64,000 bases of DNA from an uncultured archaeon (GTDB taxonomy: Archaea; Aenigmatarchaeota; Aenigmatarchaeia; CG10238-14; SCSR01): positions 10,356 through 74,355 of the forward strand of contig CAZICS010000002.1 of the NCBI GenBank assembly GCA_964537835.1. Reading direction: 5' to 3'. The translations under genes were made by a program, and so were the position numbers. A model generated the notes under the pieces. The model was not told the origin of the DNA. It was given only the letters and a program-made list of their open reading frames with translations, and ran no database searches. Positions within the stretch are counted from its first letter, which is position 1; each line of letters begins with the position of its first letter. This document shows positions 43,555-53,124 of the stretch, in pieces.

Positions 43555-43809
43555 TTAACTAACCGCTAGCTTTCTTATTTCTATTAACAATCTTTCTATA
43601 ATTTTTAGTCTTTCTATCAAAGTTTCATTCTGAATCTTCAAGCTTTCCATTTGAGTTAAGATTAAATCCATCTTCGCTTTAAGATTTTCTAGAGTTGCCG
43701 GTTCTAAGCTTGTTTCTAAAGCCTTTTCCTCTGGAATTTCAGGCAGTTCTTCTATTGGTTCTTCTTTCTTCCTTCTAAAGATACCCTTCATCTTTGAAAA
43801 TATTCCCAT
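43555..43809 (-). CDS. Small coiled-coil protein with basic amphipathic N-terminus (unknown function)
   Basis: MGIFSKMKGIFRRKKEEP..., then an acidic linker, then heptad-like LENLKAKMDLILTQMESLKIQNETLIERLKIIERLLIEIRKL. Its start overlaps the upstream stop by 1 nt. Confidence 0.55.
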   Translation of the reverse strand: MGIFSKMKGIFRRKKEEPIEELPEIPEEKALETSLEPATLENLKAKMDLILTQMESLKIQNETLIERLKIIERLLIEIRKLAVS

Positions 43810-44324
43810 TATCTTACCCTCTCAGATACAGGCAATTTGAATAGAGCTCTTAATTCTAAGTGCAATTCTTCAATAAGTCTATTACACAAATGAATATAAC
43901 TTCTTTTTACTTCTTCATAAAAAAGCTTGTGATAAACCCATACAAAAGCTTTGTAAAGAGGAGAACGTTGGAAAAATGATTTTAAATCATACTCGGTTCT
44001 TAGTCTTCCGCTTATTCTAATAGTTACCTTACCCTTTTTACTTGGATCAGAAGGTTGCAAGCCCTGAATAGTTATTTCAATCATCATTCCAGTCCTTGCA
44101 TCTATCCCTTTCCTTACATACATTCTCATATAAAAAGGTCTTGGGTCAGAGCTTATATCCCACCTAAAATCTCTTTCCCATAGATCTATAGTTTCAACTT
44201 GGAAAATCCTTCCAAGCATTCCTCTTAAAACTCTACAAACCCTAAAAGGATCAGGGCCGCTATATTCGATAGTTAAAGTCCTTTCTGGGGCTAGGCAATC
44301 ATCTTCGAAAACCCAGCGTGGCAT
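43809..44324 (-). CDS. Uncharacterised protein, paralog B of a tandem pair
   Basis: Shares the motifs DDCLA, Y.GP[DN]P, ERDF.WD, GK..IRI.GR[IL]RTEY and YH[KR]L.YEE with the upstream gene. The two genes abut with no intergenic gap. Confidence 0.6.
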   Translation of the reverse strand: MPRWVFEDDCLAPERTLTIEYSGPDPFRVCRVLRGMLGRIFQVETIDLWERDFRWDISSDPRPFYMRMYVRKGIDARTGMMIEITIQGLQPSDPSKKGKVTIRISGRLRTEYDLKSFFQRSPLYKAFVWVYHKLFYEEVKRSYIHLCNRLIEELHLELRALFKLPVSERVR

Positions 44325-44879
44325 TTATCTCTCCCTTGGAAGAATATTGAGGAAAGCTTTTAGCTCATCTTGAAACCTTAGAAGCCATTCCCTGCATTGA
44401 TTTTTGTATCTTTGTCTTTTCTCTTCATAGATTAGCCTATGATACAAAACTCTAAACATTTCATAGAATAAGCTTCTTTGCCAAAGAGTATCCTGAGGAT
44501 ATTCTGTTCTTATCCTTCCCTCTATCCTTATCTTTGCCTTTCCTTCCCTTCCAAATTCCTTGCTTGGTCGGGCTTCACCTTCTAGAGTAACTATTACCTG
44601 AATAAAAGAAAATCTATCCATATCCTTTATGAGTTCAAACCTTACCCTAAACTTTTCTCCTGCTTCACTCTTATCCCAAACAAAGTCTCTTTCTTGCAAT
44701 TCCCCAGGATCGTGCCTAAAAATTGTTGCAAAAAGCTCTTTTATTTTTTCATACAAACGCTGAGGATTTGGACCTTCGTAAGTTAAAAGCAAGTAAGGAA
44801 CTCCAGGTAAAACGCTTCCTGGAGCAGTAGCTAAACAATCATCATGTATAACTAGCTTAGTTCTTGCAAACACTGGCAT
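44325..44879 (-). CDS. Uncharacterised protein, paralog A of a tandem pair
   Basis: As above. It is the first gene of the minus-strand operon. Confidence 0.6.
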   Translation of the reverse strand: MPVFARTKLVIHDDCLATAPGSVLPGVPYLLLTYEGPNPQRLYEKIKELFATIFRHDPGELQERDFVWDKSEAGEKFRVRFELIKDMDRFSFIQVIVTLEGEARPSKEFGREGKAKIRIEGRIRTEYPQDTLWQRSLFYEMFRVLYHRLIYEEKRQRYKNQCREWLLRFQDELKAFLNILPRER

Positions 44880-44938: not shown

Positions 44939-45148
44939 ATGCTCGAAAAGCTTGAAAAAATTTTAGAATTGATTAAATTGGTAACCTTACCGCCTCTAAT
45001 TTCTAAGCTTCTGGGAGCAATCCTAATGTTTTTTGGAAGCATTTTTATCTTTGGCTTAGTTTATGCTGGAAATCAGAAAAACTTTTTATTCCAGCTTTTC
45101 TTCGGACCGATATTTATTTATCTTGGATGGGAGTTACTTAAATTATGA
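44939..45148 (+). CDS. Small two-TM membrane protein (69 aa)
   Basis: MLEKLEKILELIKLVTLPPLISKLLGAILMFFGSIFIFGLVY...FFGPIFIYLGWELLKL. The ORF-track start at 44864 is a TTG inside the opposite gene. Confidence 0.5.
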   Translation: MLEKLEKILELIKLVTLPPLISKLLGAILMFFGSIFIFGLVYAGNQKNFLFQLFFGPIFIYLGWELLKL

Positions 45149-45309
45149 TAAACAAGATAGCCGGAGGATTTTTATTTTTCATTGGTTTGCTAATAGTAGT
45201 TAAGTTTCCTTTTACTGGCTCTAAATACCAACCATTTGAAATGCAAAGAGCAGGAGTATTGTTTGGAATACTTTTGATGATAATTGGTTTAGTTTTGCTT
45301 CGACTATAA
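45145..45309 (+). CDS. Small two-TM membrane protein (54 aa), below the ORF-track cutoff
   Basis: Hand translation gives MINKIAGGFLFFIGLLIVVKFPFTGSKYQPFEMQRAGVLFGILLMIIGLVLLRL*. It has an ATGA overlap with the preceding gene. Confidence 0.5.
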   Translation: MINKIAGGFLFFIGLLIVVKFPFTGSKYQPFEMQRAGVLFGILLMIIGLVLLRL

Positions 45310-45311
45310 TT

Positions 45312-47150
45312 TTGAATAATAAGATTTCAAAAAAACAAATTTATATTATGCCAATAATTATTCCAGAATTTCCTGCACCAAGACCATGGTTTGTTATCCC
45401 TCCAGAGAGACCAGAGGCTAAACTCAAGTTTGAGCTAGGAGAGCTAATAAACGCTGTTCCTTATGAAGGGGAGATGCTCCTAGATTTTACTTCTTCCTTA
45501 GGAAAAGTTAGCGAAGTTTTTTATGCTCTATCTTTTCAACTACCAAAATGGGGATTTTTTACTGCAAAAATAGAAGAAAGTATTTTTGTATCTCCTGTTT
45601 TTAGAGAATACTATGAGATGACTCTAAGACAAAAAGAAGCTTTGGAAGCAAGAATTAAAGAGGGTTTAGCAAGTGTTGCAAGAGCCATTTCAGATTTTGA
45701 GCTAGCTTTGCATGATTTGAGAAGGTATAAGGAATACATGAATCATTTTCTTAAAATTGAAAAAGGAAAAAGACTGATTAAAGAAGGAAAAAAAGAAGAA
45801 GGAGAAAAGCTTGTAAGAGAAGCAGAACAAACTCTTAAAGCAATTTTTATAGATCAAGTTGATGTTCACACAGGAGAAGGGATTGCTTTAAAGCTAATTG
45901 CTCCAAGATGGCCTACTATTATAGCTGATTTCATGAAGTTAACTGACGAGGATACAGACCCAAAAGAAATTGCTAAAAAATATGGGGTTTCTGAGGCCCA
46001 AGGCGTTGTTCTAGCCACTAAAAACAAGCTTTACAAGGAATGGAGAGAGATGTTCAAGAAAAATGTGAGAGAAAGATATAAAAGGATTTTAAGCGTGGTT
46101 GAAATGAGGAAAGCTTCTATAGAGGAATATAGAGAGATGCTTAAACCAACCATTGCAAGGTATAAAATGATTACAGATGCCCTCAGTACTCCTCCTGGAA
46201 GAGCAGGCATATTAAAAACTGCCCACATGAGGCCGGATGCTCAAGCAATTTCTGTGGATAAAGTTACCCTTTGGGCCTGGAAACCATTTCAGGTTGCTGA
46301 AAAGTATAAGATTACTAGAGAATACTTTGACCAAATTCCAGTTTCGAAGGCAGGCTTTACTAGGAGCGAGATTTTGGAGATTAAAAAGCATTTGGGAGAA
46401 AAATGGGACGAAAAAGTTTCTGGATTGCCTCAAGAACCTTCCATAGATAGGGTTGTTAGAGCCTTTATTCCAATAATAGAAAAAGAATATGGAGTTGAGA
46501 TAACAGCTTATGATTTATATAAAGCTAGGGAAATGCTTTTGGATCAATTTAGAAAATCTTTGCCAGCTCTAGGCGGAAAAGAACCATGGGTTTTTAGCCC
46601 ATACTTCACTTTTATTTGCATTCCGATGGAAAGAACTGTTCTAAGATTGCCCAATGGCGCTCAAGTCGAAGATTTGTGGATAGAGAATTTGTATGCCGCA
46701 ACCAGAACTCAGAACTTGATACTCGTTAATTGTTTGGAGCTTATAGCAAGGGATAAGCAGTTGGAGCAGTACATAAACAGAATGCTTGGAGAGATGGGGG
46801 AAAAGGAAGGGAAAATTCTCTCGATAGAAAAAATAGTTGAAGAAAGATATAAGGAAGTTTACAAAACTCTTGAAGAGATAGAAAAAGAAGAGAAAGAAAG
46901 AGAGCTAAAGGAAAAATTGGAGAAAGCTGAGGAATCTAGGAAAAGGTTTAAGGAATTAGGTAAGAAAATTAGATTGGGTATAGGAAAGTTCTTCGCAACT
47001 TTTGGCCTAGAGCTTCGATTCTTTAGAGCTGTGGGGCCTTACGAGTTTGCCATGCACCATAGGCTTGCAAAATATCATCAAAGGGAGACGGGAGGGAATT
47101 TTGCAAGAATAGTTAGATACTTGAAGAAAAGTTTTGGGGTGCCCGGTTAG
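45312..47150 (+). CDS. Large uncharacterised, largely helical protein (about 600 aa)
   Basis: Uninterrupted 612-codon ORF; an alternative ATG lies at 45348. Pro-rich N-terminus PIIIPEFPAPRPWFVIPPERP, long predicted coiled-coil stretches and a KE-rich segment near the C-terminus. No NTP-binding or catalytic motif recognised. Confidence 0.6.
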   Translation: MNNKISKKQIYIMPIIIPEFPAPRPWFVIPPERPEAKLKFELGELINAVPYEGEMLLDFTSSLGKVSEVFYALSFQLPKWGFFTAKIEESIFVSPVFREYYEMTLRQKEALEARIKEGLASVARAISDFELALHDLRRYKEYMNHFLKIEKGKRLIKEGKKEEGEKLVREAEQTLKAIFIDQVDVHTGEGIALKLIAPRWPTIIADFMKLTDEDTDPKEIAKKYGVSEAQGVVLATKNKLYKEWREMFKKNVRERYKRILSVVEMRKASIEEYREMLKPTIARYKMITDALSTPPGRAGILKTAHMRPDAQAISVDKVTLWAWKPFQVAEKYKITREYFDQIPVSKAGFTRSEILEIKKHLGEKWDEKVSGLPQEPSIDRVVRAFIPIIEKEYGVEITAYDLYKAREMLLDQFRKSLPALGGKEPWVFSPYFTFICIPMERTVLRLPNGAQVEDLWIENLYAATRTQNLILVNCLELIARDKQLEQYINRMLGEMGEKEGKILSIEKIVEERYKEVYKTLEEIEKEEKERELKEKLEKAEESRKRFKELGKKIRLGIGKFFATFGLELRFFRAVGPYEFAMHHRLAKYHQRETGGNFARIVRYLKKSFGVPG

Positions 47151-47151
47151 T

Positions 47152-48942
47152 ATGGCTTATTTGATTGGAGTTTCGAGCGGAATATTCGGGGCAGTGCCTG
47201 AAGCCGAAAGAATTCAGTATGCAGGATTGGCGAAGAAAGCTGAGTATTGTATAACTAAAGGCGTGCAGTTTGTTCAGATAGATTTGGAATCTGTCTCTGA
47301 GTTTAAGGCACCAAATTTGAAAGAAGATATGGAGAAGATAAGGAAGTTAGGGGTAAGGTATGGGATTCACTCTGAAACTCGGGCTTTTGGAGTTGAGGTT
47401 GCTGAGTTAGATTCTGCTATAGAAACGGATTATAAGTTTGGGCATGAAAGGTTGAGAGAGATTCTGGAAAAATCCGGAGAAATAAAAAGCGAGTATGTTT
47501 TAATCCATTCTTCTGAATCTCACCCATTTTTATTACTCGAAAGGCATCTACAGCCAGCAGCTTTAGTTGATTTCTTCGGAAATCCTTTAAGAGAATTCTT
47601 AGAAGAAAATAAAGATTTACTGGATTGGGCTCTAGGAGGAGGGGTTGAAGATATTTCTGAATGTGTATATGATGTATGGTTAAAAAAGAAGAAAGGGATA
47701 AGCGTAGAGGATATAAAAGGAGCTTTTAAAGCAAGTGGTCTCAATCCCCAAGATTTTATATGGATTGAAGTTATTGGAAGGCCTTTAGCAGAAATTCTAA
47801 GAGGAAGAATCTTAGATAGAGTCGAAACATGGGAGATAGAAACTGGAAAAGATTATGAGAGTTTGGAACCTGACAAGAAAAAAATAGTCAATGAACAAAT
47901 TAAGAGAAGTTTAAATGTTTTGGTCTCTGATATAAGAACAGCTCTCTTAAACTATGTTCAATCAAGAACTCTGCATTATGGTCCTGAGAGAATAGCTTAC
48001 TATTTCATTGCAAAATGGATGGAAAAAACTAGTGATCCTCTCTGGAATAACATAGTAAATGCAACCATAGAATTTTTTGCTAGGAGCGAGAAAAAAAGCG
48101 TAGAAGAATGGCTGAGAGAAAAAGGAATAAAGGAGAAAAGTATAGACGATGAAAATTTTAGGAAGTACAGCTATCTATGGGTTCCTGCAGTTTCCGCTAA
48201 ATACATATGGGGCCATTTGAACCAAGATAAAAATCCAAAGAAAACTTACTATGATTTAAAAAAAATAATAAAGAAGTATAACATGCCTCTAGTTCTAGAA
48301 ACTCCGATGGCTCATAGAGGCATAGAAGAATGGCTCCGCTTACCAAATCCAATTCAAATGTATTATCTGGCTAGACAAGTTAATGAAGAGGCCGGTTTCT
48401 TCTGCCTAGCTGTAGCGATGGATTTTGAGCATATGTTGAGCATAAGATTAGACCCAGAGGTTGTAATAGATTGCTTACCAGAGGAGGCAGGAAAATTTGT
48501 AATCGTTCTTCATGTAGGTTATCCCTCCCCTCTAGCCCCCGCTCACATACCAATTCCTTTGGGTTCGGAGCAGCAATTGTACCTTTACAAGCTAATGTAT
48601 AAGCTGAGAAAGAAAGGTTTTGGGAAGGATGAGAAAGATTACTACATAGTTTTTGAGAGAGGAGGAGGTCCAGACCCTATCAAGCAATCCATAATTGCTT
48701 TAAGGAAAATAGTTGAATTTTTGGAAAAAGATGTACCGCCCGAAAAACTACCGATGGAATTCTATGGTTTTGCTACTGGCGAAATAGCTTCTTTGGAAAG
48801 GCAAAGAGCAATAATATTCGAGCACGCTCTAGACCCTTTGAAAGGTTTAGTTTATGTACCCGAAGAGGAGCATACTTTCCTGGGAAGGGCTGCCACCGAA
48901 AGAGTTGCCCCTGAAAAATGGAAGAAAGAAGAGTTGAGATAA
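47152..48942 (+). CDS. Expanded xylose-isomerase-like (AP-endonuclease-2 / sugar-phosphate isomerase) TIM-barrel protein with a large insertion
   Basis: The strand-end motif series YGIHSE, VLIHSS, LVLETPM, AMDFEHM, VLHVGYP and VFERGGG parallels the HAP / FHPG / ENM / YDVAH / HIHD series of the neighbouring canonical 320-aa enzyme. The ATG lies 1 nt after the upstream stop. Confidence 0.55.
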   Translation: MAYLIGVSSGIFGAVPEAERIQYAGLAKKAEYCITKGVQFVQIDLESVSEFKAPNLKEDMEKIRKLGVRYGIHSETRAFGVEVAELDSAIETDYKFGHERLREILEKSGEIKSEYVLIHSSESHPFLLLERHLQPAALVDFFGNPLREFLEENKDLLDWALGGGVEDISECVYDVWLKKKKGISVEDIKGAFKASGLNPQDFIWIEVIGRPLAEILRGRILDRVETWEIETGKDYESLEPDKKKIVNEQIKRSLNVLVSDIRTALLNYVQSRTLHYGPERIAYYFIAKWMEKTSDPLWNNIVNATIEFFARSEKKSVEEWLREKGIKEKSIDDENFRKYSYLWVPAVSAKYIWGHLNQDKNPKKTYYDLKKIIKKYNMPLVLETPMAHRGIEEWLRLPNPIQMYYLARQVNEEAGFFCLAVAMDFEHMLSIRLDPEVVIDCLPEEAGKFVIVLHVGYPSPLAPAHIPIPLGSEQQLYLYKLMYKLRKKGFGKDEKDYYIVFERGGGPDPIKQSIIALRKIVEFLEKDVPPEKLPMEFYGFATGEIASLERQRAIIFEHALDPLKGLVYVPEEEHTFLGRAATERVAPEKWKKEELR

Positions 48943-49905
48943 CTAAAAGCTGTCTGGAATGCCAAAAATTTCTCTTAATTTTTTCAGGCTAAGCCTGAAC
49001 TCAACTTCTAAAGGAGTGACTTCATAGATCACAAGCTTTTTCCTTCCCGCAACTTTTAAAATCGCTTCGTTCGGAACCTTTCCCTTCCCTATTAGCGGAA
49101 CCAAGTGCAAATCTCCTATTCCTTCTGCATAATCCACTCTACCATAAAGTCCTGGCTTGCAAAGGTTGTCGTGAATGTGGAGCTTTACAACCTGGTCGGC
49201 TATTTCCATAAAATTTTTAACCTGGTCAAACTTATAATAGCTTGCAGCCAGCGCAGCATGAGCTACATCGTAGGTTATTTTCAAAAACTTATTCCCAACA
49301 GCTTTAACCACTTCTTTGGTTTCAGAAGGATGGGTTAATAAATAGCCAACATCTATCCTTGGTTCCATGTTTTCTATGGTAATGGTTAAACCATTCTTTT
49401 CTGCATAGCTTGCAAGTTTTTTTAAGCTTTCTATCAAATATTTTTTTGCTTCATGCAAGTAGTTGGATAAAAATCTCTCCTTCCCCAAACTAAGGCCCTT
49501 GTAAACGTAGCCTGGATGGAAAGTTACAAACTCAGCTTCTAGCAAGTAAGCCAAATCTATGGTCGAAAGCGCATAGTTTAGAGAAGTCTTTCTTTCCTCC
49601 TTACTTAAAGAGCACAGATTTAAATCCGGCATTAGCTTCTCGTTTATATGGGGGGCGTGAATGGTTAGCTTAAAACCTCTTTTATCGGCAACTCTTCTGA
49701 TCTTGAGAGCAACTTGCTTTTTAATTCCTTTTCTGCTGGCTCCAAAAACTTCTGGGAATGCACTTATTCCAAGCTCGACGTACCACTCTTCCCTCCTTTT
49801 CAATCTCTCAAAAATTTCTAAGAACATGTCGAGAATCTTAAACCTCTTACTCAAAGGATAGTTCCAGAGCAAGCGGCGAGAAGCATTAACTCCAACCTTA
49901 ATCAT
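48943..49905 (-). CDS. Sugar phosphate isomerase/epimerase (xylose isomerase-like TIM barrel)
   Basis: LTIHAPH, FVTFHPGY, ITIENME, ITYDVAHAALA, LHIHDN and GDLH motifs. Confidence 0.7.
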   Translation of the reverse strand: MIKVGVNASRRLLWNYPLSKRFKILDMFLEIFERLKRREEWYVELGISAFPEVFGASRKGIKKQVALKIRRVADKRGFKLTIHAPHINEKLMPDLNLCSLSKEERKTSLNYALSTIDLAYLLEAEFVTFHPGYVYKGLSLGKERFLSNYLHEAKKYLIESLKKLASYAEKNGLTITIENMEPRIDVGYLLTHPSETKEVVKAVGNKFLKITYDVAHAALAASYYKFDQVKNFMEIADQVVKLHIHDNLCKPGLYGRVDYAEGIGDLHLVPLIGKGKVPNEAILKVAGRKKLVIYEVTPLEVEFRLSLKKLREIFGIPDSF

Positions 49906-49972
49906 TTAAAAATTTTGGTTTTTTGAAAAATTAAATTTTAAATCTTAAGCTTAACTAAATTTTAAATTAACC

Positions 49973-50506
49973 ATGGAAGACACAAAACCAAAAATAGCCC
50001 TGGCTATTTCTTTCCTAGCTTGTGCATTAGTCTTTTTGACTAAGCAAGTCTTCTTGATAGCTTGCATGCTCGTTTTGATAGAGAAATGTATAATAGGAAG
50101 GCTTAATCCAACTACCATAGGAGGAATAGAATTTACCACCATTTCAACCATTTTAGTTACTCTAAAGTATGGTTTGCTTCCGGGCATTTATTTTTGTATT
50201 TTTCTTCTGATAGCTCCAGGTATAGTCAATGCAATTTTAGGGGACAGATGGGTTTATAATCCGAGCTTCAACCCTTCTTCCATAGGACCGGGAAATCCCA
50301 GGGATTTTATAGCCGTTCTCTTGATCTATTTCCTTTCAGGTTTGGGCCTAAGCTTGGTTTGGATCATGCTGATAGTCCTAGCTTTTAAGAATTTTGCGAA
50401 GTACGAAGGCTTTGGGGAGATGGATTTAATTTCGATACCAGTGAACTTCATCTTTAATCTTATTCTTTTGCAGTTGCTGAACCCCATCTTGCCTTACTTG
50501 CTCTAA
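49973..50506 (+). CDS. Hypothetical polytopic membrane protein
   Basis: Five hydrophobic segments; no motif. Confidence 0.4.
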   Translation: MEDTKPKIALAISFLACALVFLTKQVFLIACMLVLIEKCIIGRLNPTTIGGIEFTTISTILVTLKYGLLPGIYFCIFLLIAPGIVNAILGDRWVYNPSFNPSSIGPGNPRDFIAVLLIYFLSGLGLSLVWIMLIVLAFKNFAKYEGFGEMDLISIPVNFIFNLILLQLLNPILPYLL

Positions 50507-50570
50507 TGTTTTCACTTATGAGTGGTTAAAAATAGAAAAATATTTAAATAGGTTATCCCAAAAGATAAAT

Positions 50571-51419
50571 ATGGCTTTGGAAAAGCTAGAAGAGGAATTG
50601 GAAAAAGCTGAGAAATTGGTCGAAGAGGTTAAGGAAGTAAAAAAACCTTCTAAGGAAGTTTATTCAAAAGTCATAGCTTTTACTAATGAAGCTAGAAAGC
50701 AGTACGGTGAGATAATTAAATCAGTTTTAATCTTTGGTTCTGCGGCCAGAGGGATGATGAAGGAGGGTAGCGATATAGATGTTTGGGTCATTCTGGATGA
50801 TACGGCCACAAAAAGCTCGGAGGATTTGCAAAAGGTTAACACCCAGCTTTACCTAATTGCTCAAGAGCTTAAGGATTTACACATCCAAACAACCACGCTT
50901 ACAGAATTCTGGAATTGGATAAAGCTCGGCTCCCCAGAGCTAATAAATTTTTTGAGGTATGGATTAGCCATCTATGATACAGGTTTTATCAAGCCCGTTC
51001 AAAGAATGCTCCAGATGGGTTTGATACCGCCTAGCGAAGAAGCTGTAAAGCTAAAGGCAAGGGCTAGCGAAGCAAGAATCAAGAAGATCGAGCTTGACTT
51101 AAAATCGATGATTTTTGAGTTGAGGTATGCGGCAACCGATGCTTGCCAAGCTGTAATAATGTATTATTATAAGGCTCAGCCAGACCAAAAGGCTATCCCA
51201 GGCTTTTTGGAAAAGCTCGTGAAGGAGAAAAAATTAGAACCAGAATTTATAGAAAAGTTTAAGGAGTTGGATAAGCTCTGGAAAGATATCGATCATAAAA
51301 TAGTTAAGGAAGTAGATCCAGCTTACTTGGAAAAAGCACTAAAGCTTGCAAAGGAAATAATCGAGAGGATGAAAAAATTATTGCCAAAAGATATTATGGA
51401 AGAGATGGAAGGTGAGTAG
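50571..51419 (+). CDS. Minimal-nucleotidyltransferase (pol-beta fold) domain fused to a HEPN-like helical domain; degenerate W-x4-H paralog
   Basis: NTase motif IFGSAARGMMKEGSDIDVWVILDD. C-terminal helical domain with LWKDIDHK at the position of the Rx4H motif in the paralog. Coiled-coil N-terminal leader. Confidence 0.65.
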   Translation: MALEKLEEELEKAEKLVEEVKEVKKPSKEVYSKVIAFTNEARKQYGEIIKSVLIFGSAARGMMKEGSDIDVWVILDDTATKSSEDLQKVNTQLYLIAQELKDLHIQTTTLTEFWNWIKLGSPELINFLRYGLAIYDTGFIKPVQRMLQMGLIPPSEEAVKLKARASEARIKKIELDLKSMIFELRYAATDACQAVIMYYYKAQPDQKAIPGFLEKLVKEKKLEPEFIEKFKELDKLWKDIDHKIVKEVDPAYLEKALKLAKEIIERMKKLLPKDIMEEMEGE

Positions 51420-51420
51420 G

Positions 51421-51642
51421 ATGGAATACAAGTGTAAAGGGAATTTTATGGACAAGCAGGGAAGATGCTTGTTGCCAGCTAACAGAGTAAAAACTTCTGA
51501 CTTGAGTAGGTTGAAAGAAAGAGACCCTTATGTTTTTTCTTTGGTAAAAGAGCATGCTCATAAGCAAGGAGAAGAGTACATTCCAAAGTGTGAAGAAGTT
51601 TCGCTCTGTCCTTTAAGGGTTGAAGTTAAAAGGAGTGGTTAG
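51421..51642 (+). CDS. Small Cys-containing protein (73 aa) between the two NTase genes
   Basis: MEYKCKGNFMDKQGRCLLPA...PKCEEVSLCPL. The start lies 1 nt after the upstream stop, and its stop abuts the next ATG (TAGATG). Confidence 0.45.
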   Translation: MEYKCKGNFMDKQGRCLLPANRVKTSDLSRLKERDPYVFSLVKEHAHKQGEEYIPKCEEVSLCPLRVEVKRSG

Positions 51643-52773
51643 ATGGCAAAAAAAGAAAAAAAGAAGGAAGAGAAGCTTGAGACAAAGGAGGAAGTTTTGG
51701 AAAAGGTGAAAAAATTTGCGAAGAAGGTTTTAGACAAGTATGGAAAGTATGTTAAGTGCATAGTGATGATGGGTTCTGTCGCAAGAGAAGAGTTTAAGCC
51801 GAAGAGCGACGTAGATGTTTTTGTTGTCATAGACGATGCTAGCTTTAAAATAACTCCAGAATTTCAAGAAAAGCTTGACGAGGATTTGGAGCAAATAGCC
51901 AAGAAAATTTCCGAAAGAATTTCTGTTCAGCCTAGCTATACTCTAACCGAATTCTGGGATTATGCAAGAGTTTGTCATCCAATAATTTATAACTTTATAA
52001 AAGAGGGGGTTGCAATTTATGATACAGGCTTCTTTACACCAATAAAAAAACTTTTAGAGATGGGGAGAATTCCTGCTACAAGGGAAGCTATAGAAAGCTA
52101 CATGGAAGGGGCTCCTAAAAAGCTAATGAGAGCAAAGACTGTTAAGCTCTTAATGCTTGCTGAAGATTGCTATTATGCTATGCTGAATACTGCACAAGCC
52201 GTCCTAATGTTCATGGGTCTAGCTCCTCCTGTTCCGAGTAAAGCCTATCAAGAAGTTAAGAAATATCTGGTCGAGCCGGGTATTTTAGAGCCAGAGTATG
52301 CAGAATGGTTGAGAGAAATAATCGAAATCAGGAAAAAGATTGAGCATAAAGAGCTAATGGATGTGAGCGGAGCTTTTGTCGACGAGTGGATCGATAAAGC
52401 GGAAAAGTTCGTTAACAAGATGTTTAGCTTGCTCAATGCTTTGGAGCTGAGGAAAAGGGAAAAGATTTTAGAAAGGACGCATGAAGTGCTTTATAAGGCA
52501 GCTATCACCGCTTTAAAAACTTTGAAGAAAGAACCTAAGAAAGCGGAAGAGATTCCTTTGGCTTTCAAGCGAGAGTTCATCGATAAAAAGCTTGTAGAAG
52601 GCTATTACTGGGACATTTGGAAGCGAATCGAAGATTTGAAGAAGCTAGCAGACCAAAAGAAAATAGACCAAATTCCCGATAAGGAAGTTTATGAAATGCG
52701 TGAATATGTGAGAAGGCTTATTCGTGAGCTAGCTAGAGTTTTGAAGAAGAAAGAAAGGAAGGGAAAGAAGTAA
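51643..52773 (+). CDS. Minimal-nucleotidyltransferase domain fused to a HEPN-like helical domain (Rx4H retained) plus a C-terminal helical extension
   Basis: NTase motif MMGSVAREEFKPKSDVDVFVVIDD. HEPN-like IEIRKKIEHK (R-x4-H). It is a clear paralog of 50571..51419 (TLTEFW..., AIYDTGF..., IP...EA). Confidence 0.65.
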   Translation: MAKKEKKKEEKLETKEEVLEKVKKFAKKVLDKYGKYVKCIVMMGSVAREEFKPKSDVDVFVVIDDASFKITPEFQEKLDEDLEQIAKKISERISVQPSYTLTEFWDYARVCHPIIYNFIKEGVAIYDTGFFTPIKKLLEMGRIPATREAIESYMEGAPKKLMRAKTVKLLMLAEDCYYAMLNTAQAVLMFMGLAPPVPSKAYQEVKKYLVEPGILEPEYAEWLREIIEIRKKIEHKELMDVSGAFVDEWIDKAEKFVNKMFSLLNALELRKREKILERTHEVLYKAAITALKTLKKEPKKAEEIPLAFKREFIDKKLVEGYYWDIWKRIEDLKKLADQKKIDQIPDKEVYEMREYVRRLIRELARVLKKKERKGKK

Positions 52774-52800: not shown

Positions 52801-53124
52801 CTAATTTCTTTGAATCCTATTTTTTTCCTCTACAAACACGTCTAAAATATACCCATATTTTCTTATTTTTCTAATAGGAGGATTTTCTTTTATAAAACCT
52901 AGAGCATAGCTGATTATTCTATTTTTGTGAAGTGCAACCAGTAATACGCTCTTATCATCTTTTATCCTTTTCTTTGCAAATTTAATCCAAATTGTTTTCC
53001 CATTATTATTTCTTGCGTAATATTTTGGATCTAATTTTCTATGATGGAGATTCAACTTTCTGTGTAATTCTGCTATTTTTTCAACTTCTTGGATTTTAGC
53101 TTCTCTTATTATAAATTCTTCCAT
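52801..53124 (-). pseudogene. N-terminal fragment of a GNAT acetyltransferase (acetyl-CoA-binding motif A missing)
   Basis: IIREAKIQEVEKIAELHR...LLVALHKNRIISYALGF...GYILDVFVEEKNR then stops before the expected Q/RxxGxG/A motif. There is no room downstream, since the next gene ends at 52773. Confidence 0.5.

Follow-up and report, generated by a model that had tools for sequence, protein, structure and literature searches.

The locus described here lies in a 64,000-nucleotide stretch of DNA (the window) from the 773-kb genome of an archaeon of the Aenigmatarchaeota (DPANN). Three genes follow one another on the forward strand. The first and third, which we call A and B, encode proteins of 282 and 376 amino acids (aa), each of which joins a nucleotidyltransferase (NTase) domain to a helical domain of the HEPN fold; the second, S, encodes a protein of 73 aa. 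A preliminary description of the window had presented the three as a coupled triad and had proposed that they form a self-contained regulatory or defense module in which S is a metal-binding adaptor. The features of the locus are as follows.

50540..50550, + strand: TATA-like element atatttaaata, preceded by an A-rich tract, ~25 nt 5′ of the ATG of A
50571..51419, + strand: gene A (282 aa), the short paralogue; Pol-beta NTase domain and HEPN-fold domain with WKDIDH
50733..50783, + strand: NTase motif of A, FGSAARGMMKEGSDIDV (residues 55-71); G56, S57, S67, D68, and D70 invariant, followed by D76-D77
51279..51296, + strand: WKDIDH at the HEPN-motif position of A (residues 237-242); W237, K238, and H242 invariant in 22 orthologs
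51421..51642, + strand: gene S (73 aa), between A and B, with four Cys residues (C5, C17, C58, and C64)
51643..52773, + strand: gene B (376 aa), the long paralogue; NTase domain, HEPN domain with RKKIEH, and a second, degenerate HEPN-like helical domain
51769..51819, + strand: NTase motif of B, MGSVAREEFKPKSDVDV (residues 43-59); G44, S45, S55, D56, and D58 invariant, followed by D64-D65
52330..52347, + strand: HEPN motif RKKIEH of B (residues 230-235); R230, K231, I233, E234, and H235 invariant in 23 orthologs
52498..52767, + strand: C-terminal extension of B (residues 286-375), four helices, a second match to the HEPN part of the family hidden Markov model

The TATA-like element, as read from the sequence, is probably A's own promoter in this genome.

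We first asked which families A and B belong to. Membership in the Pol-beta-type NTases was defined as an hG[GS]-x9-13-Dh[DE]h motif with a third downstream carboxylate and a score above the Pfam threshold. Against PF01909 (cut-off, 21 bits), A scored 35.7 bits (E = 1e-8) and B scored 38.2 bits (E = 2e-9), and B also passed the threshold of the DUF294 NTase family (26 versus 21 bits). The NTase signature that the preliminary description had reported in both large proteins is therefore genuine. BLASTP aligned A and B with 32% identity over 247 aa (E = 3e-32), pairing W237 of A with R230 of B and H242 of A with H235 of B. We concluded that A and B are paralogues and that the R-x4-H of B faces a Trp in A at the equivalent site, as had been described.

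Assignment to the HEPN fold (Pfam clan KNTase_C, PF05168) required an up-down bundle of four helices with homology to HEPN proteins. A scored 21.4 bits against PF05168, just under the 22-bit cut-off. A profile built from 50 diverse members of the family matched the HEPN protein AF0298 (2hsb) over the whole helical domain (E = 8e-7), and the column of the profile that holds R or W aligned with the motif Arg of AF0298. AlphaFold2 models of the monomers had a mean predicted local distance difference test score (pLDDT) of 84.7 for A and 84.4 for B. When the models were compared with the PDB using Foldseek, the best whole-chain matches of both proteins were aminoglycoside NTases, namely, kanamycin nucleotidyltransferase (KNTase)/ANT(4′), AAD(9), and AadA (E about 1e-5), in agreement with the likeness to KNTase suggested earlier. 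Further matches of B were to HalB and GlnE. B superposed on AF0298 with a TMt of 0.84 and a root-mean-square deviation of 1.9 Å over 120 columns, and A matched the HepT toxins 7ae9 and 7bxo (TMt of 0.58 for 7bxo). Based on the near-threshold PF05168 score, the profile match to 2hsb, and the AlphaFold2 models, we concluded that both proteins have the HEPN fold, with R-x4-H at the expected position in B, and that the description of them as NTase-HEPN fusions holds. With KNTase, the profile search gave an alignment that covered the NTase region only. The C-terminal extension of B has KKLADQ at the motif position, without R or H. Low-confidence tails rich in Lys and Glu open both A (50571-50650) and B (51643-51690), and B terminates in KKKERKGKK (52740-52773); these basic tails may bind nucleic acid or may merely reflect the amino acid composition of DPANN proteins.

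Relatives were sampled as 41 genomes of the same order as the window's genome (G000), which served as the reference. The family is present in 39 of the 41, including all 18 high-quality genomes. Wherever contigs allow the locus to be read, a genome carries a single gene of each type, the B-type gene being adjacent to the A-type gene and after it (A→B). Orthologs of A are 52 to 96% identical in the relatives; B shows 76 to 98% identity over more than 100 clusters made at a 90% identity level, and the homologs of A and B in question are labelled Aenigmatarchaeota. The A-to-B spacing falls within -7 to +21 nt at 15 of the 23 loci examined, with junctions that either overlap (ATGA) or abut (TAAATG or TGAATG), indicating that the two products are cotranslated. 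Open frames of 659 to 744 aa hinted at an A-B fusion within Aenigmatarchaeota, but a stop codon was present at the junction in all 23 loci, and we rejected this possibility; true fusions were confined to two distant acidic proteins, described below. In five relatives (L020, L021, L022, L025, and L027), the ATG of B lies in frame directly after the stop codon of A. Read-through of a single stop in such an arrangement would yield an A-B fusion protein, which explains the long open frames.

Both genes evolve slowly. Mean identity to the reference over 23 genomes was 79.6% for EF-1α, 71.5% for B, 67.1% for A, and 61.1% for the CCA-adding enzyme; within the family, the corresponding values were 83.7%, 79.3%, 73.5%, and 66.0%. 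B was more conserved than the CCA-adding enzyme in 22 of the 23 genomes and in some was at least as conserved as EF-1α. This is how a core housekeeping gene behaves, unlike a toxin-antitoxin (TA) or defense gene. Searches of PHROGs, plasmids, phages, and IMG/VR viral contigs returned no match to A or B, and a mobile-element or viral origin was rejected on these grounds. We concluded that the A/B pair is core and vertically inherited.

The same cannot be said of S. The gene starts 1 nt past the TAG of A, and its own TAG directly precedes the ATG of B (TAGATG), so that the coupling is as the preliminary description gave it. However, a homolog of S was detectable in only 3 of the 41 genomes, all of one genus, and in another genome of that genus (G005) A and B overlap, leaving no room for S. 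Between G000 and G001, S had a pN of 0.34 and a pS of 0.62 (dN/dS about 0.34), with all four Cys residues kept; pN for A and B in the same comparison was 0.07 to 0.08. S had no match in Pfam, NCBIfam, PADLOC, or PHROG. Judged from these sequences, S is probably a real but young, fast-evolving, genus-specific accessory inserted at the A-B junction. A role as a conserved adaptor was rejected, given its presence in 3 of 41 genomes and the abutting or overlapping A and B genes of 15 of 23 loci, and the locus is thus a pair rather than a triad. Other small Cys-containing open reading frames (ORFs) occur in A-B gaps elsewhere: one of 95 aa with four Cys residues (MGKCVKGH...C...C-x4-C) in G013 (L010:1189-1479) and one of 31 aa with three Cys residues in G018 (L006), neither with detectable homology to S. 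The A-B junction seems prone to gaining small Cys proteins.

We then compared the motif positions among orthologs. RKxIEH is invariant in 23 orthologs of B, and WKxxxH is invariant in 22 orthologs of A; the G-S, D-x-D, and D-D residues of the NTase site are intact in both sets. Because each form is invariant in its own ortholog set, we concluded that the R/W dichotomy noted in the window is real and old.

The family extends beyond Aenigmatarchaeota. A full HMMER scan with A recovered 244 representatives at E <= 1e-10, and homologs found by profile search were labelled Nanoarchaeota, Woesearchaeota, and Altiarchaeota, besides Aenigmatarchaeota. In a second DPANN phylum, the one that holds the Woesearchaeota match, the family was found in all 151 sampled genomes. 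About 126 of these had two matches and no more, a short one (about 270 aa) and a long one (about 600 to 650 aa), usually unlinked. In the long forms, a complete B-like protein is preceded by a degenerate module that has the NTase part only. One distant homolog carries a helix-hairpin-helix (HhH) nucleic-acid-binding motif. On an Altiarchaeota-labelled contig (L033), a gene for a 612-aa TIM barrel (PF01261, 34.4 bits) is followed by an A-like and then a B-like gene. Beyond these lies a gene for a Tsr3-type rRNA aminocarboxypropyltransferase (Ribo_biogen_C; L033:7072-7539), with genes for AspRS, TFIIS, and TFIIB nearby; the surroundings of this cluster are a housekeeping context.

Across the whole family, the GS, DxD, and DD residues are almost always intact, the Lys at +1 is present in 89% of members, and the His at +5 is present in 74%. 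The motif Arg is far less constant, its frequency rising from 3% among short forms to 37% among those of mid length and 60% among long ones, and neither partner of the L033 pair has it. Since the Arg varies in this way, canonical HEPN RNase activity is unlikely to be the core activity of the family. A catalytic HEPN RNase is expected to have a conserved Rx4-6H contributed by both HEPN units of the dimer; here B offers RKKIEH but A offers WKDIDH. No acceptor Tyr is found in or beside the motif in either A (WKDIDHKIV) or B (RKKIEHKEL).

Two closely related metagenomic proteins, P0393 (634 aa) and P0124 (633 aa), both very acidic and probably from halophilic DPANN, are single-chain fusions in which a B-like module with its extension precedes an A-like module. 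The A-like module has kept WKDYEH but has lost the NTase motif (G→L and DxD→DxS). The B-like module has kept the NTase motif, and a Thr replaces the motif Arg. These complementary losses point to the combination of the NTase domain of B with the HEPN domain of A as the indispensable site. Both proteins would be useful natural constructs for structural work.

A DPANN-specific cluster, cls.004259 (NEQ050), was listed by Makarova, Wolf, and Koonin (2019; PMC6393860) as "MNT fused to HEPN ... typically in house-keeping context," MNT being minimal nucleotidyltransferase. Those authors stressed that its conservation is unlike that of TA systems and placed it among the top-priority uncharacterized families, but the cluster occupies one table line in that study and was not analyzed there. 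It shares with A and B the same architecture, restriction to DPANN, broad conservation, and nondefense context. By architecture, taxonomy, and distribution, A and B are probable members of this known but uncharacterized cluster. What is new here is the complement of short and long paralogues, the R/non-R asymmetry, the second HEPN-like domain of B, the B-A fusions, an operon with an endonuclease IV-like gene, and an evolutionary rate close to that of EF-1α. In the proposal of Anantharaman et al. (2013; PMC3710099), fused enzymes such as KNTase and GlnE, with HEPN as the substrate-binding domain, arose by repeated domestication of MNT-HEPN TA pairs.

Among characterized proteins, KNTase ANT(4′)-Ia and the ANT/AadA enzymes (1kny, 6un8, 6sxj, and 5g4a) have the same two-domain build of an NTase with a HEPN-like helical domain. 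KNTase differs in being a homodimer of one gene product, in having an antibiotic as substrate, in its patchy distribution, and in lacking Rx4H, whereas A and B are two diverged core paralogues, of which B keeps Rx4H and has an extra domain. GlnE (1v4a and 3k7d), which matched B structurally at an E value of about 2e-3, has two tandem paralogous modules, each an NTase with a helical domain, with nonequivalent activities. Unlike A and B, however, GlnE is a single chain whose protein substrate is known, and A and B do not belong to its family at the sequence level.

In Aenigmatarchaeota the pair belongs to a longer gene set. The upstream genes in the window are as follows.

43555..44879, - strand: m184, m171, and m84, divergent orphan genes, which accompany the operon in 14 of 20 relatives (m84 is not always part of the set)
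44939-45148, + strand: tm1, small membrane protein, which opens the conserved operon
45145-45309, + strand: tm2, small membrane protein of the operon
45312-47150, + strand: p612, 612-aa orphan of the operon
47152..48942, + strand: w602, divergent endonuclease IV/xylose-isomerase-like TIM barrel (602 aa) with an insert of ~250 aa; most relatives have A directly 3′ of it
48943..50506: lineage-specific insertion between w602 and A, consisting of a 320-aa AP_endonuc_2 TIM barrel (- strand; PF01261, E = 7e-31) and a 177-aa multipass membrane protein, Mem177 (+ strand)

Of 20 relatives, 18 keep the colinear order tm1→tm2→p612→w602→A→B, and w602 is present in 38 of the 41 genomes. The spacing between w602 and A in other relatives is about 40 to 170 nt in most loci and several hundred nucleotides in a few. 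Neither inserted gene was found in the loci of other relatives, except that Mem177 also lies 5′ of A in G002. No family match was obtained for tm1, tm2, p612, or the m184/m171/m84 set. w602 itself has no Pfam match, but 4 of 14 orthologs match PF01261 (best E = 2.8e-7), and the alignment of w602 shows an invariant H/H/E/D-x-x-H/H/E series. Within the superfamily, the only PDB matches of the w602 profile, all weak, were to endonuclease IV (2x7v and 4hno; E = 0.47). In hhalign, the w602 profile and the 612-aa TIM barrel of L033 aligned at the E...D-x-x-H strands, with an E value of 8e-5 and a probability of 61%; direct BLASTP between the two proteins detected no homology, and the support is at the profile level only.

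Two further observations concern the window's genome. A 107-aa ORF on the minus strand (52801-53124), convergent with B and ending 27 nt from its stop codon, resembles the N-terminal half of a GNAT acetyltransferase. Elsewhere in the genome (G000 contig C32:183-461; L013:159-485), a separate 108-aa minimal NTase (PF01909, E = 1e-14) is followed by a 100-aa ORF without a family match. This could be a classical small MNT-type pair, contrasting with the core A/B pair.

Taking these results together, we consider it reasonably probable that A and B together make up an ancient housekeeping enzyme of the DPANN core, domesticated from MNT-HEPN ancestors, similar to KNTase and acting as an obligate A·B heterodimer, with w602, p612, and the membrane proteins as operon partners. 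The heterodimer is suggested by strict co-occurrence, by translational coupling, and by the natural B-A fusions. It would be pseudosymmetric and built like the KNTase dimer, each NTase site being completed by the helical domain of the partner. Two nonequivalent sites would result, one from the NTase domain of B and the HEPN domain of A (W-K...H) and the other from the NTase domain of A and the HEPN domain of B (R-K...E-H). Such an enzyme would transfer a nucleotide to a housekeeping substrate and, in Aenigmatarchaeota, would work with the products of the same operon, namely, the endonuclease IV-like metal phosphoesterase w602, the 612-aa orphan, and the small membrane proteins. The preliminary description had set its proposal against the case of housekeeping NTases without partner linkage; the housekeeping-like context agrees with that case, but the linkage between A and B is strict.

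Several observations weigh against this interpretation. The Arg-x4-His of B is invariant within Aenigmatarchaeota and common (60%) in long forms, and, as far as its sequence goes, B may yet have RNase activity. The short and long paralogues are usually unlinked in Nanoarchaeota, which also fits two independent enzymes. One genus (g24), the only such genus, has A-B detached from w602. Adjacency and fusions are indirect evidence of a heterodimer, and the fusions come from one closely related sequence pair.

As to the substrate, we lean, with low confidence, toward the 3′ ends of nucleic acids: the phosphoesterase might clear a blocked 3′ end, after which a nucleotide would be added. The endonuclease IV-like partner, the HhH motif in one distant homolog, and the Lys-rich tails all point in this direction. 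On the other side, the idea of 3′-end processing depends on the endonuclease IV-like neighbor, and the xylose-isomerase-like superfamily also holds sugar enzymes. Two specific roles were considered and rejected. A and B are not a stand-in for a missing CCA-adding enzyme; the window's genome has a canonical cca gene (TIGR03671, 458.5 bits versus a cut-off of 281.3; G000 C11:9898-11316), as do 39 of the 41 relatives. Nor are they an RNA-tailing substitute for a missing exosome, the genes for the RNase PH ring being present in 26 of 26 genomes.

If the substrate is not a nucleic acid, A and B might instead be small-molecule or sugar NTases of the KNTase/ANT type, which would serve a pathway of cell envelope or metabolite modification together with membrane proteins and TIM barrels of the sugar-isomerase type. 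The best whole-chain structures are indeed ANT(4′), AAD(9), and AadA, w602 and its 320-aa neighbor belong to a superfamily rich in sugar enzymes, and the operon encodes small membrane proteins. However, the ANT models score far under their cut-offs: against the ANT(4′)-I model (NCBIfam NF033061), B reached 31.6 bits versus 350, with a match limited to the N-terminal NTase region. Moreover, the weak PDB matches of w602 within the superfamily are to endonuclease IV, and the HhH motif and the Lys-rich tails suggest nucleic acid. We regard this explanation as doubtful but as a serious rival, none of these points being decisive.

A bolder extension of the housekeeping heterodimer is an essentially universal 3′-end machine of DPANN. 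In such a machine the R-x4-H site of B, to which A would contribute its W-x4-H asymmetrically, would cut or grip RNA, w602 would act as a tri-metal phosphoesterase to clear the 3′-phosphate or cyclic phosphate so produced, one NTase site would add nucleotides, and the transmembrane proteins and the 612-aa orphan would tether the assembly to the membrane, possibly for handling host-derived nucleic acids or nucleotides. We put this forward as speculation with little chance of being right in full.

A and B could also be two independent, cotranscribed paralogues, each a homodimer with its own substrate and without any A·B complex. Homodimers are the usual form of KNTase and of HEPN proteins, A and B of Aenigmatarchaeota each have an intact NTase site, and the short and long forms of Nanoarchaeota lie at separate loci. 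This reading does not account well for the strict adjacency and the coupled or overlapping start and stop codons across the whole order, for natural B-A fusions with complementary motif losses, or for the retention of both types together in almost every genome of two phyla. We consider it unlikely.

The defense-type module of the preliminary description would make B an active HEPN RNase toxin, A a paralogue that lacks this activity and controls B (NMPylation being one conceivable means), and S a metal-binding adaptor. Type VII TA systems are built from MNT and HEPN domains. Such systems are marked by an acceptor Tyr within or adjacent to the R-phi-xxx-H motif, for AMPylation by MNT, and by a patchy distribution linked to mobile elements. 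In HepT/MntA and in the fused FhepTA proteins (PMC7641770 and PMC13000451), the Tyr at the motif is required, and the genes are found on mobile elements. A and B share both domain families with these systems, arranged from the N to the C terminus as in FhepTA. Their HEPN domains superpose on HepT toxins, the structural matches include 7ae9, 7bxo, and the MNT antitoxin 8xeo, the NCBIfam MntA and PADLOC PDC-S09 models match the NTase domains weakly, and the Rx4H of B is invariant. The differences are substantial, however. There are two fused proteins here and one in FhepTA; the linker is of ~45 residues with an invariant D-x-G-F-x-x-P and E, whereas that of FhepTA is short and hydrophobic; and the motifs of A and B lack the acceptor Tyr that HepT and FhepTA possess. 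The MntA scores are 24 to 30 bits, versus a cut-off of 60 bits. The motif Arg is absent from both L033 partners and from 97% of short forms, and S is found in 3 of 41 genomes. Above all, the pair is single-copy, vertically inherited, and nearly as slow as EF-1α, being found in 39 of the 41 relatives and in all 151 genomes of the second phylum, with no relatives in the mobile and viral collections searched. We concluded that a TA or defense module is very unlikely, although the preliminary description was right to separate the locus from two-gene MntA/HepT systems.

A Foldseek match to Hailong HalB (9dbj, E about 1e-3) and weak matches to the NCBIfam HalB and CBASS cyclase models would fit an enzyme that, like HalB or the CBASS cyclases, makes a signaling nucleotide or an oligonucleotide, which the HEPN domains or the membrane proteins would then detect. 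This reading is extremely improbable: the matches span the generic NTase core only (20 to 22 bits versus cut-offs of 190 to 200 bits), and the conservation follows a core-gene rather than a defense-gene pattern.

The genomes of DPANN archaea are tiny, and very few of their core genes are specific to the lineage. The A/B pair, universal in the sampled genomes of a second DPANN phylum and nearly so in the Aenigmatarchaeota sample, is among them. It offers a clear case of TA building blocks turned into an apparently essential enzyme, and its substrate could reveal a DPANN-specific step in the handling of nucleic acids or nucleotides that is relevant to the symbiotic lifestyle of these organisms.

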